A stretch of DNA of 15,862 nucleotides, from the IMG/VR virus record IMGVR_UViG_2609460218_000002; one strand, given 5' to 3'. The translations under genes were made by a program, and so were the position numbers. Source of the DNA: a virus. Taxonomy: Duplodnaviria; Heunggongvirae; Uroviricota; Caudoviricetes. The notes under the pieces are model-generated. The model was not told the DNA's origin. It did no database searches and was given only the letters and a program-made list of their open reading frames with translations. Position 1 is the first letter of the stretch; each line of letters opens with the position of its first letter. This document shows positions 2,133 through 4,538 of this stretch, piece after piece.

Positions 2133-2176
2133 GCTTGGTGTCTATTCGATGGATACTCACATACTACGGTAACATC

Positions 2177-2407
2177 ATGAAAAAAATCATAGNTTTTTTT
2201 AACTCTGAACCAGCAGTGGTAGTGCCAGCGATGACTGGAGTTAACACCATCATGCGTGAATATCCAAATGGCGAAAAAACACACCTTACTGTAATGGCCG
2301 CAGGGTTTCCATCTCTGACCGGAGATCATAAAGTCATTTATGTAGCCGCGGATCGACATGTTACTTCAGAAGAAATTCTGGAAGCAGCAATAAGGCTCTT
2401 GAGTTGA
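2177..2407 (+). CDS. Hypothetical 76-aa protein (possibly YnfN/YmcE-like, partner of GnsB)
   Basis: Track ORF 2135..2407 begins with TTG inside the terminator T-run, so the ATG at 2177 (MKKII...) is preferred. Protein-like composition. The minus-strand track ORF 2093..2359 is W/C/H-rich and judged spurious. Contains one N (2193). Confidence 0.5.
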   Translation: MKKIIXFFNSEPAVVVPAMTGVNTIMREYPNGEKTHLTVMAAGFPSLTGDHKVIYVAADRHVTSEEILEAAIRLLS

Positions 2408-2530: not shown

Positions 2531-2578
2531 CGACTTACTGTGTAACTGGAAAGTCATAACAGACTAAAAGAGGAAATG

Positions 2579-2752
2579 ATGAATATTGAAAACTTAAAAA
2601 CAAAAGCAGAAGCAGATATTTCTGAATATATAACAAAAAAAATTATTGAACTTAAGAAAAAGACCGGGAAAGAAGTTACCAGTATTCAGTTTACCGCACG
2701 GGAAAAAATGACGGGTCTTGAAAGCTATGATGTCAAGATTAATTTAATCTGA
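2579..2752 (+). CDS. gnsB: GnsA/GnsB-family small protein
   Basis: 57 aa: MNIENLKTKAEADISEYITKKIIELKKKTGKEVTSIQFTAREKMTGLESYDVKINLI. Tandem ATGs at 2576 and 2579, with AGAGGA SD best spaced for 2579. I recognise the GnsA/GnsB family by its conserved C-terminal REKMTGLESYDVKI motif. Not in the ORF track (below size cut-off). Confidence 0.8.
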   Translation: MNIENLKTKAEADISEYITKKIIELKKKTGKEVTSIQFTAREKMTGLESYDVKINLI

Positions 2753-2781
2753 TGTATTCAATAATAAAATTTATCCATAAA

Positions 2782-2805
2782 CCTCGTTTTTACGGGGTTT
2801 TGTTA
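2782..2805 (+). terminator. Putative rho-independent terminator after the gnsB-like gene
   Basis: Stem CCTCGT (2782-2787) / ACGGGG (2792-2797) with one G-U pair, loop TTTT, then a T-rich tract. Confidence 0.5.
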
Positions 2806-2866
2806 TATTTGAATGGTTCCGAATATCTAAATCACAATTGTTGATGGTTTTTATTAAACCAATGCA

Positions 2867-2895
2867 GTCCGGCTCAGGAGTGAGAGAAGCCGGAC
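2867..2895 (-). terminator. Hairpin directly after the ydfO-like stop (candidate terminator for the minus-strand unit)
   Basis: 8-bp perfect inverted repeat GTCCGGCT (2867-2874) / AGCCGGAC (2888-2895) with a 13-nt loop, 8 nt beyond the minus-strand stop codon. The downstream U-tract on the minus strand is weak. Confidence 0.4.
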
Positions 2896-2903
2896 GTTAT
2901 GGT

Positions 2904-3314
2904 TTAGCGTGGTAAGATCTGTGTAGTTTTCTGGATGCTTTCAGTAAATAGTAATGAATTATCAAAGGTATAGTAATATCTTTTTTGTTCGTGGATATTT
3001 GTAACCCACCGAAAAACTCCTGCTTTAGCAAGGTTTCTTCTGTATTCCTGAAATGTGATCTCTCTGGATTTCAGCTTATTAGAGGTCGTTTCTATAAGAT
3101 GCCTATCCTTTGAAAATTTGACAGACACAATGTTTTTTAGGCCCTTTAATAACACTGTATTATCATTTTTTAATACAATATGAACATTCTCTGTGGCTAA
3201 ATAGTAAATGTAATGTGAGACATTGTGACGTTTTAGCTCAGAATAAAACCATTGATAGTTTAAATCGTTTCGAACTTTATCAAATATTTGTTTAAAAATG
3301 ACTACCTGATCCAT
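2904..3314 (-). CDS. ydfO: YdfO-like protein (DUF1398 family), function unknown
   Basis: Track ORF 2904..3329 (141 aa). A GGAAGG SD sits 7 nt upstream of the second ATG (3314), so a 136-aa product is preferred. The sequence ([40 protein letters not shown]...) matches my recollection of E. coli YdfO from Qin. Confidence 0.8.
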
Positions 3315-3371
3315 AGATAAACCTTCCATGTGATATGAGGGGGCGTAGTCTGCACGATTATCTAAATTTCT

Positions 3372-3605
3372 TCAATCTGGTCTGACCTGTTTTCTGAGCA
3401 ATTCAGTAATGTCACTCTTTTCTTTGTTTGCTTCAGAAGAAACTCTTTTTTCTGAGCACAGTCTCCGGCGGCAGGCTTCAATGACCCAGGCTGAGAAATT
3501 CCCGGACCCTTTTTGCTCAAGAGCGATGTTAATTTGTTCAATCATTTGGTTAGGAAAGCGGATGTTGCGGGTTGTTGTTCTGCGGGTTCTGTTCTTCGTT
3601 GACAT
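3372..3605 (-). CDS. DUF3950-family small DNA-binding protein with predicted ribbon-helix-helix fold (YlcI/YnfO-like)
   Basis: 77 aa. Basic N-terminus (MSTKNRTRRTTTRNIRF) followed by a strand-helix-helix pattern (NIRFPNQ / MIEQINIALEQ / NFSAWVIEACRRRL), consistent with an Arc/CopG-like RHH fold. Co-oriented with and 57 bp upstream of the ydfO-like gene. Matches my recollection of YlcI/YnfO proteins found next to nohD/nohQ in K-12 prophages. Confidence 0.8.
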   Translation of the reverse strand: MSTKNRTRRTTTRNIRFPNQMIEQINIALEQKGSGNFSAWVIEACRRRLCSEKRVSSEANKEKSDITELLRKQVRPD

Positions 3606-3699
3606 GAGGTTGTCCCGTATTCAGTGTCGCTGATTTGTATTGTCTGAAGTTGTTTTTACGTTAAGTTGATGCAGATCAATTAATACGATATCTGCGTCA

Positions 3700-3990
3700 T
3701 AATTGATTATTTGACGTGGTTTGATTGCGTAGATGCACGTTGTGACATGCAGATGATAATTATTATCATTTTGCGGGTCCTTTCCGGCGATCCGACAGGT
3801 TACGGGGCGGCGCCTCGCGGGTTTTCGCTATTTATGAAAATTTTCCGGTTTAAGGCATTTCCGTTCTTCTTCGTCGTAACTTAATGTTTTTATTTAAAAT
3901 ACCCCCTGAAAAGAAAGGAAACGACAGGTGCTGAAAACGAGCTTTTGGGCCTCTGTCGTTTCCTTTCTCTGTTTTTGGCCGTGGAATGAA
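3700..3990 (+). other. cos site of lambda type (cosQ, cosN, cosB with Nu1-binding R elements)
   Basis: 3640-3803 matches the lambda right end (...GGGTCCTTTCCGGCGATCCGACAGGTTACG). cosN at about 3805-3815 reads GGGCGGCG-CCT against the lambda cohesive end GGGCGGCGACCT. Downstream, AAAGGAAACGACAG (3914-3927) and its inverted copy CTGTCGTTTCCTTT (3953-3966) correspond to the Nu1-binding R3/R2 elements. A 17-bp palindrome ATGATAATTATTATCAT lies at 3752-3768. The internal cos shows prophage or concatemer topology. Confidence 0.85.
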
Positions 3991-3992
3991 CA

Positions 3993-4512
3993 ATGGAAGT
4001 CAACAAAAAGCAGCTGGCTGACATTTTCGGTGCGAGTATCCGTACCATTCAGAACTGGCAGGAACAGGGAATGCCCGTTCTGCGAGGCGGTGGCAAGGGT
4101 AATGAGGTGCTTTATGACTCTGCCGCCGTTATAAGATGGTATGCCGAAAGGGATGCTGAAATTGAGAACGAAAAGCTGCGCCGGGAAGTTGAAGAACTGC
4201 GGCAGGCCAGCGAGACAGATCTCCAGCCAGGGACTATTGAGTACGAACGCCATCGACTTACGCGTGCGCAGGCCGACGCACAGGAGCTGAAAAATGCCAG
4301 AGACTCCGCTGAAGTGGTGGAAACCGCATTCTGTACTTTCGTGCTGTCGCGGATCGCAGGTGAAATTGCCAGTATTCTCGACGGGATCCCCCTGTCGGTG
4401 CAGCGGCGTTTTCCGGAACTGGAAAACCGACATGTTGATTTCCTGAAACGGGATATCATCAAAGCCATGAACAAAGCAGCCGCGCTGGATGAACTGATAC
4501 CGGGGTTGCTGA

Positions 4513-4538
<26 letters not shown>
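3993..4538 (+). CDS. nu1: Terminase small subunit Nu1
   Basis: 181 aa, near-identical to lambda gpNu1 as I recall it (MEVNKKQLADIFGASIRTIQNWQEQGMPVLRGGGKGNEV...; N-terminal HTH DNA-binding domain), with only a few substitutions. Directly downstream of cosB. Confidence 0.97.

Follow-up and report, generated by a model that had tools for sequence, protein, structure and literature searches.

ynfO and ydfO beside cos of a Qin-type lambdoid prophage: probably separate accessory genes that share a slot

Do two small genes that lie in tandem next to cos, on the strand opposite the late operon of a prophage, constitute a functional unit, or are they neighbours that occupy the same place? This question is raised by a stretch of 15,862 nucleotides of caudoviricete DNA (IMG/VR virus record IMGVR_UViG_2609460218_000002), the whole of which is called the window below. 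An earlier note, made from the letters of the sequence, had described a small predicted ribbon-helix-helix (RHH) protein followed by a protein of a second family, and had proposed that the two could represent an undescribed toxin-antitoxin, exclusion or defence module. As a fallback, it offered the description of a regulator plus an unrelated cargo gene.

Identity and layout of the locus

Profile scores above the respective cut-offs bear out the family assignments that were originally made for both proteins. The first protein matches DUF3950 (PF13132; E 2.7e-21, 75.6 bits against a cut-off of 25) as well as the NCBIfam model YlcI_YnfO_N (NF041551; 36.6 bits against a cut-off of 30), and the second matches DUF1398 (PF07166; E 1.7e-46, above the cut-off). 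Open reading frame and Pfam checks also confirm the two-gene antisense layout, with a 77-aa DUF3950 protein, a 57-nt spacer and a 136-aa DUF1398 protein. The size of the spacer depends on the start codon of the second gene. We consider the ATG at position 3314 to be its likely start, given that a GGAAGG Shine-Dalgarno sequence is located 7 nt upstream, that homologues begin there, and that the RefSeq gene is 411 nt in length. The order of features is gnsB, ydfO, ynfO and cos, with ynfO upstream of ydfO (Table 1).

Table 1. Positions in the window of the two antisense genes, their neighbours and nearby sequence elements.
Feature	Position	Strand	Remarks
gnsB	2576-2752	+	Neighbour on one side of ynfO-ydfO
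Stable RNA hairpin	2855-2906	-	Directly after and overlapping the ydfO stop; core stem 2867-2895
ydfO (DUF1398, 136 aa)	2904-3314	-	Alternative upstream ATG at 3329 (open reading frame 2904-3329) would give 141 aa
Upstream block travelling with ydfO/ybcV	3315-3391	-	GATAAT -10-like hexamer and Shine-Dalgarno sequence; overlaps the last ynfO codons
ynfO (DUF3950, YlcI/YnfO family, 77 aa)	3372-3605	-	Pfam and NCBIfam matches, RefSeq naming
PdhR-box-like palindrome AACAGGTCAGACCAGAT	3375-3391	-	61-77 nt upstream of the ydfO ATG
Nested imperfect inverted repeats	3667-3707		62-102 nt upstream of the ynfO ATG; candidate operators
Nu1/nohA	3993-4538	+	Other side of ynfO-ydfO, with cos; terminase A also on this side

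Within the window, no other genes run antisense to the late operon. Between the lysis and head genes of a 99.9% identical E. coli genome, RefSeq likewise annotates no minus-strand genes but these two, in agreement with the earlier statement that no other transcription unit points against this operon.

Many E. coli chromosomes match a 1.7-kb region around the locus at 99.9% identity and carry there genes named gnsB, ydfO, ynfO and nohA; the temperate phage PhiR42_1 matches this region at 99.6%. Judged by this degree of identity, the two antisense genes beside cos can be named ynfO and ydfO, which belong to lambdoid prophages of the Qin type, and the K-12 Qin genes of these names form essentially the same locus. 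Thus, the locus is already known, both as named K-12 genes and through a protein structure solved in 2006: the YdfO sequence encoded here is identical at 140 of 141 positions to PDB entry 2HH8, an NMR structure of E. coli YdfO released in that year. Intact terminase, portal and head genes are located downstream of ynfO-ydfO in this prophage; K-12 Qin, by contrast, is truncated after nohA.

A 246-nt probe spanning the ynfO-ydfO junction, which is 99.6% identical in K-12, was used to count adjacent genes at a coverage of at least 80%. Adjacency was found in 2172 of 5426 complete E. coli genomes (approximately 40%), K-12 included. Up to 8-12 ynfO-like copies are present in O157 genomes, versus one or two ydfO-like copies. 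Both genes are listed as uncharacterised Qin-prophage genes in the 2024 review of the E. coli y-ome (PMC11551758), which accords with the earlier remark that neither family has an established function, and our literature search for a function of DUF1398 or DUF3950 found no paper assigning one.

Occurrence of the two families together and apart

The diversity of the two families was judged by tblastn searches of phage records and by a scan of representative genomes (one genome per species). Among annotated phage records, YnfO-like proteins were identified in 155, approximately 70 of which are Stx-converting phages, and YdfO-like proteins in 43, all of them lambda-like E. coli phages; E. coli predominates in both our samples, of phages and of genomes, and these co-occurrence counts carry no correction for phylogeny. 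A search of viral contigs for related loci returned near-identical copies only.

DUF3950 genes occur without a DUF1398 partner. In an Stx2a phage, the DUF3950 gene lies alone and antisense, directly upstream of the HNH-TerS-TerL genes, and two records of phage satellites carry DUF3950 genes above the Pfam cut-off, again without DUF1398. The converse also applies. In the representative-genome scan, each of the 34 DUF1398 loci at 49% identity or less is without a DUF3950 gene within 4 kb. These divergent loci are of the ycgX type (Escherichia, Shigella and Citrobacter) or derive from Kluyvera, Pseudocitrobacter and Salmonella diarizonae. The paralogue ycgX itself is a solitary gene downstream of bluR for which nearly every one of the 5426 E. 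coli genomes gave a match, and other DUF1398 copies are plain chromosomal genes without DUF3950. A very divergent DUF1398 gene (P0394) resides alone and antisense between the Rz and terminase genes of another lambdoid type. The boundary between lysis and packaging genes in three lambdoid types thus carries DUF3950 only, DUF1398 only, or both.

Close relatives of ydfO present a different picture, in that DUF1398 genes at 75% identity or more (one genome per species) are preceded on the same strand by a DUF3950 gene in every case in which the sequence extended that far, and Nu1 is adjacent wherever the locus extended past cos. In lambda-type phages, homologues of the two genes keep their synteny and common strand in every case. 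In lambda and DLP12, a ylcI-ybcW-ybcV block occupies the same position, between the lysis genes and cos, with ylcI and ybcV on the same strand as ynfO and ydfO. Their YbcV protein (lambdap78 in lambda) is 79% identical to YdfO, and the N-terminal 54 residues of the YlcI-type protein are 98% identical to those of YnfO. However, the lambda-type DUF3950 protein has 64 aa and a different tail, compared with 77 aa for YnfO, and the two genes lie approximately 540 bp apart with the opposite-strand gene ybcW (lambdap79) between them, rather than 57 nt apart as in the Qin type. The DUF3950 gene of lambda is unannotated in NC_001416.

The gene-neighbourhood check proposed in the earlier note therefore finds no conservation as a pair, as judged by the unequal phage-record counts and the 34 solitary DUF1398 loci. 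Linkage of ynfO and ydfO is limited to one syntenic block of lambda-type phages. Given the phage-record counts, the divergent solitary loci and the separation of the two genes by ybcW in lambda and DLP12, this linkage is better explained by common descent than by mutual dependence.

Two sets of matches were set aside. Proteins of 233 aa that seemed to fuse both domains (P0002 and P0242) result from reading the TGA stop codon of ynfO as tryptophan, and in related loci the two genes are not consistently in frame. Matches in contigs of approximately 3.5 kb labelled as non-enterobacterial (Pseudomonas, Bacillus, Flavobacterium and others) share 79% identity, which is the level of lambda, and are probably contamination with lambda control DNA.

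Features of the YnfO and YdfO proteins

Both ynfO and ydfO are judged to be real coding genes, because both bear the substitution pattern of purifying selection. Codons 1-50 of ynfO compared with the homologue from an Stx phage yield a dN/dS ratio of 0.11 at a dS of 0.74, and ydfO compared with its lambda homologue gives 0.18 at a dS of 0.54. The ratio rises to 0.54 in the ynfO tail, and thus the conserved unit of YnfO is its N-terminal 50 residues. This basic domain is followed by a variable C-terminal tail that is unrelated between Qin and lambda.

The AlphaFold2 monomer of YnfO has a basic unstructured arm, after which helices at residues 19-32 and 34-73 are joined by a turn at G33; the pLDDT is 86 over residues 21-50. 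Residues 13-18 (RNIRFP) are unstructured in this monomer, as is expected when the partner strand is missing. The best Foldseek matches are ParD antitoxins of the RHH class, at a non-significant E value of about 1.2. An hhalign comparison with Arc is likewise not significant (E 0.1), and it has the expected register, setting TRNIRFPNQMIEQINIA of YnfO on QFNLRWPREVLDLVRKV of Arc, with NIRFP on the beta-strand NLRWP of the Arc sequence, which we verified. Seven of eight diverse DUF3950 members give a weak match in one region to the HicB-like PHROG 497 (best E value of 1.4e-4, for a homologue), and the match for the YnfO protein of the window is weak (E 0.049). Pfam searches with single proteins and with all family members revealed no link to RHH families at E values up to 10, and sequence searches of the PDB for such a link, with single and profile queries, found nothing.

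Given these observations, we consider RHH to be the most likely fold of YnfO, a plausible but weakly supported assignment that falls short of statistical establishment. The original RHH prediction thus survives as plausible on the basis of the ParD and HicB-like resemblances, whereas the statistically significant match that would secure it did not emerge. YnfO resembles known RHH proteins (Arc, Mnt, ParD and the C-terminal domain of HicB) in its size, its basic N-terminal arm, and its two helices with a glycine-containing turn; it differs from them in that its monomer model lacks the strand and in having no obligate partner gene. On the basis of these modelled features, YnfO is probably a small DNA-binding regulator. 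Candidate operators are present upstream of ynfO in the form of inverted repeats with 13-nt arms that are 85% complementary, together with a second repeat nested with them. This region is nearly identical in lambda-type phages, and its conservation is therefore non-discriminating.

The fold of YdfO is that of 2HH8, an internally duplicated alpha-alpha-beta-beta-beta arrangement that is seen only within DUF1398. A Foldseek search of BFVD with YdfO returned nothing below an E value of 0.01, and no fold match to a known toxin was obtained. Across the family, the only invariant residues are L27, N43, G99 and Y114, a set that, from alignment, does not look catalytic. Models from PADLOC-DB v2 gave no match for YnfO, YdfO, gnsB or ynfN at E values up to 0.1. 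The lack of conserved residues of a catalytic type and of a PADLOC match points to a binding rather than an enzymatic role, and we infer that YdfO may bind a component of the host and be neither a toxin nor an enzyme.

Some descriptions attached to YdfO should be treated with scepticism. Strong induction of ydfO by an ionic liquid in exponential phase has been reported (PMC4077768). The same paper states that YdfO overexpression confers resistance to oxidative stress, citing Wang et al. 2010. That study reports on YfdO of CPS-53 and does not include ydfO, and we reject the claim as a mix-up of gene names. The same YfdO/YdfO slip is present in PMC9181523. Labels on YdfO homologues such as 'head protein' (PHROG 413) and 'putative envelope protein' come with no supporting evidence.

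Control elements and competing readings of the locus

The DNA ahead of ybcV in both lambda and DLP12 can be aligned with the 77 or so base pairs located 5' of the ydfO start codon, while the flanking DNA differs. The homology begins at the GGTCAGACCAGATTGAA box and palindrome AACAGGTCAGACCAGAT, and the block is kept with or without an adjacent ynfO gene. The palindrome is an exact match to a K-12 PdhR site determined by gSELEX, which was reported within 'ynfO > ydfO < gnsB' (PMC7660256). An equivalent site exists upstream of ybcV, whose mRNA is reduced 10-fold in a pdhR mutant (PMC7660256), and lambda and DLP12 share the block including this PdhR box. A separate observation is that the region has two ties to host regulators, to PdhR through the site upstream of ydfO and to Fur through a site on the cos side.

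In the Qin type, the block also encodes the last residues of YnfO, and therefore the Qin YnfO tail looks like the product of a rearrangement that joined ynfO and ydfO. A scan for sigma-70 consensus promoters on the minus strand found none for ynfO or ydfO, and a terminator scan predicted none between the two genes. The hairpin noted earlier after the second stop codon is real as judged by folding (minimum free energy of -21.9 kcal/mol, z score of -6.3 relative to shuffled sequences), but because it is without a clean T-run, it was not called by the terminator scan.

The reading we favour, at a probability of roughly 60%, is that ynfO and ydfO occupy one slot as separate accessory genes of the moron type and do not constitute an interdependent two-part system. 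This is close to the fallback proposal of a regulator plus an unrelated cargo gene. The ynfO-ydfO locus would then be a compact version of the ylcI-(ybcW)-ybcV block of lambda and DLP12. The N-terminal 50 residues of YnfO are predicted to form an RHH DNA-binding dimer, and the protein may serve as a transcription regulator that is made in the lysogen from the strand opposite the late operon. YdfO would be a soluble, non-enzymatic cargo protein that interacts with a component of the host and is expressed under host control through its own upstream region with the PdhR site. Separate control of ydfO is suggested by its own conserved upstream block and by the presence of ybcW between the two genes in lambda and DLP12.

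Comparison with the bor and lom morons is in keeping with this favoured reading, since those genes are likewise small, lie between modules of the late operon either in antisense or under separate control, are not needed for plaque formation and are patchily distributed. Unlike the envelope proteins Bor and Lom, whose phenotypes are known, YdfO is soluble and without a known phenotype. Patchy distribution at a module boundary is evident across the three lambdoid types. The evidence for dispensability in lytic growth comes from the lambda homologue lambdap78, whose knockdown by CRISPRi did not reduce plating (EOP of 1.9) and which is classed as non-essential (PMC10695390). The same data set scores lambdap79 as essential; this score concerns the plus-strand ybcW-like gene and not the YnfO homologue. 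We ascribe it to polarity on the late transcript, a CRISPRi artefact that is documented for the nin region of lambda (PMC10695390).

Other readings of the locus have to be weighed against separate accessory genes. An operon in which an RHH repressor, YnfO, autoregulates the Qin ynfO-ydfO transcript and thereby sets the level of YdfO, with no toxicity involved, would fit the shared strand, the short spacer and the lack of a predicted terminator between the genes. It would also give a role to the inverted repeats upstream of ynfO, and it is consistent with the adjacency kept in the 2172 E. coli genomes and with the regulatory role suggested by satellites, in which the DUF3950 gene is divergent from a small repressor-family gene. 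Nevertheless, we regard this arrangement as unlikely. The upstream block of ydfO with its PdhR site is conserved irrespective of ynfO adjacency, an opposite-strand gene separates the pair in lambda and DLP12, and the DNA-binding domain of YnfO is nearly identical in Stx phages without DUF1398, such that its target cannot be specific to ydfO. The constant synteny in lambda-type phages and, in the Qin type, the 57-nt gap with no predicted terminator count against full independence, so that co-transcription and regulation of ydfO by YnfO are possible; the evidence weighs against obligate coupling. A broader proposal holds that, in lambda-type phages, Stx phages and satellites, DUF3950 proteins are small RHH regulators of an unrecognised class, expressed from the strand opposing the lytic operon, and that Qin YnfO and YdfO form a module expressed in lysogens, acting for example in superinfection exclusion or in host reprogramming tied to pyruvate or iron status; we find this proposal distinctly improbable as a whole, although a role of this kind may apply to either gene by itself.

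We also considered whether YnfO acts at the boundary of late transcription and packaging, where a DNA-binding protein might modulate read-through, the use of cos, or the interplay of helper phage and satellite. DUF3950 is the last gene before, and antisense to, the packaging genes in two unrelated modules (Nu1/A-cos of lambda and HNH-TerS-TerL of Stx phages), it is antisense to the main operon in two satellites, and an 8-mer, CACGTCAA, upstream of the DUF3950 gene is common to three contexts (87 of 3000 shuffles) and is, like the inverted repeats, a candidate binding site of YnfO. This 8-mer is absent from the Stx context, however, and the satellite genes are not adjacent to terminase genes. 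Moreover, the position is a general moron slot of lambdoid phages, so sharing it need not mean a role in packaging, and the lambda region is reported as non-essential (PMC10695390). A boundary function is very unlikely on this evidence. Least probable among the readings considered here is the toxin-antitoxin, abortive-infection or superinfection-exclusion module, in which YdfO would be the effector and YnfO an RHH antitoxin that neutralises it via the C-terminal tail. The layout resembles that of type II loci in which the RHH antitoxin gene comes first, ParD proteins are the best (non-significant) fold matches of YnfO, which also has its weak HicB-like similarity, and the locus is a prophage moron site beside gnsB, which is annotated as a toxin. 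Yet co-occurrence fails in both directions, and Qin and lambda have unrelated YnfO tails as against 79% identity of YdfO and YbcV. The YdfO fold matches no known toxin, no PADLOC model matches, and nearly all E. coli genomes carry ycgX, a paralogue that stands alone. That YdfO could be produced for NMR may argue faintly against strong toxicity as well. A conserved pair, a tightly coupled operon with a single autoregulated promoter, and a second gene of a toxin family or fold are characteristic of type II systems, and ynfO-ydfO exhibits none of them. The suggestion of an undescribed toxin-antitoxin, exclusion or defence module is thus not supported, given the failed co-occurrence, the lack of a PADLOC match and the lack of a fold match to a known toxin.

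For these reasons, ynfO-ydfO does not merit inclusion among candidate new toxin-antitoxin or defence systems. The two are named and very common prophage genes of E. coli that are not mutually dependent. At the same time, both families are functionally blank even though they are represented in phage lambda itself and in approximately 40% of complete E. coli genomes, and YdfO has a fold without structural relatives. A phenotype for either gene would fill an annotation gap in the best-studied phage.

Sites between ynfO and cos

On the cos-facing side of ynfO, the DUF3950 gene, a Fur-box-like sequence (GATAATTATTATCATTTTG) attains a score that was equalled by none of 200 shuffles. Its counterpart in K-12 is a Fur site, located 233 bp ahead of nohA, that has been verified in a gel-shift assay (PMC2189734); the sequence is also kept in lambda. 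It overlaps a predicted sigma-70-like promoter that points rightward, towards cos and Nu1. The coordinates of these and the other features discussed here are collected in the table.

An 8-mer, CACGTCAA, is found in the same orientation upstream of the DUF3950 start codon in three unrelated contexts, namely the window and two phage-satellite records (L160 and L161). It was not found in the upstream region of the DUF3950 gene from Stx phage, which was included in the comparison. Some 8-mer was common to at least three of the four upstream regions in 87 of 3000 shuffles of the sequences. We regard CACGTCAA as a possible operator, to be taken as a lead only.

Features of the window and of related records
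Feature	Record	Position	Strand	Remark
ynfN-like ORF	window	2135-2407	+	PHROG 3425 match; ambiguous base inside
gnsB	window	2576-2752	+	Pfam GnsAB_toxin, E 3.3e-35
Terminator-like hairpin with T-run	window	2779-2800		between gnsB and ydfO
8-mer CACGTCAA	window	~3711-3718		113 nt upstream of start codon
Sigma-70-like promoter (predicted)	window	3742-3769	+	rightward
Fur-box-like GATAATTATTATCATTTTG	window	3755-3773	+	16/19 consensus positions
cosN	window	3805-3815		reads GGGCGGCG-CCT
Ambiguous bases	window	1059, 1640, 1667, 2193, 6357, 9916, 9931, 12092, 12810, 12832, 13602, 15457
8-mer CACGTCAA	L160	~3447-3454		54 nt upstream of start codon
8-mer CACGTCAA	L161	~3435-3442		66 nt upstream of start codon
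DUF3950-containing stretch	L160	3134-4108	-
DUF3950-containing stretch	L161	3083-3757	-
YnfO homologue	lambda NC_001416	48142-48303	-
YnfO homologue	locus L001	3587-3781	-

cosN, neighbouring genes and base calls

The cosN of the window is one base short (the A of GGGCGGCGACCT) relative to lambda, DLP12, E. albertii and E. coli H15, the last being a 99.9% identical relative in which this A is present. The missing base may reflect an error in sequencing; if it does not, the cohesive end would be shortened. Twelve bases of the window are ambiguous and consequently introduce X into several translations, including those of ynfN and terminase A; in the closest E. coli genome, ynfN is annotated as frameshifted. 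On the far side of the pair, gnsB and the DUF1398 gene ydfO are convergent.

Homologues, fusions and gene names

The YnfO homologue of lambda has no annotated gene in the RefSeq record. The name lambdap79 appears to denote a plus-strand ybcW-like ORF, since its product name and position agree with a 207-nt YbcW-like CDS, and published 'lambdap79' results therefore do not concern DUF3950. The genes ydfO (Qin) and yfdO (CPS-53) have been mixed up in print (PMC4077768, PMC9181523); we rejected an oxidative-stress phenotype for YdfO, as this phenotype is that of YfdO.

Assemblies that bear such labels as Pseudomonas, Bacillus, Flavobacterium and Staphylococcus contain copies with 79% identity, the level seen for lambda (genome-scan loci L167-L188 and L197-L199, plus protein hits), mostly on contigs of ~3.5 kb. 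We read these copies as probable contamination of public assemblies by lambda control DNA. Likewise dismissed were two 233-aa fusion proteins (P0002 and P0242) as artefacts of public gene calls in which TGA is read as tryptophan. In the window, ynfO and ydfO share one frame and are separated by a single TGA stop (3372-3374) and 19 codons; the frame is no longer shared in the related loci L164 and L190.

DUF3950 genes in satellites

In both satellite records, the DUF3950 gene is antisense and lies within a long annotated ORF, whose 'transcriptional repressor' PHROG match is restricted to its last ~60 residues. These long ORFs are probably over-extended and, if so, the DUF3950 gene would be divergent from a small repressor gene.
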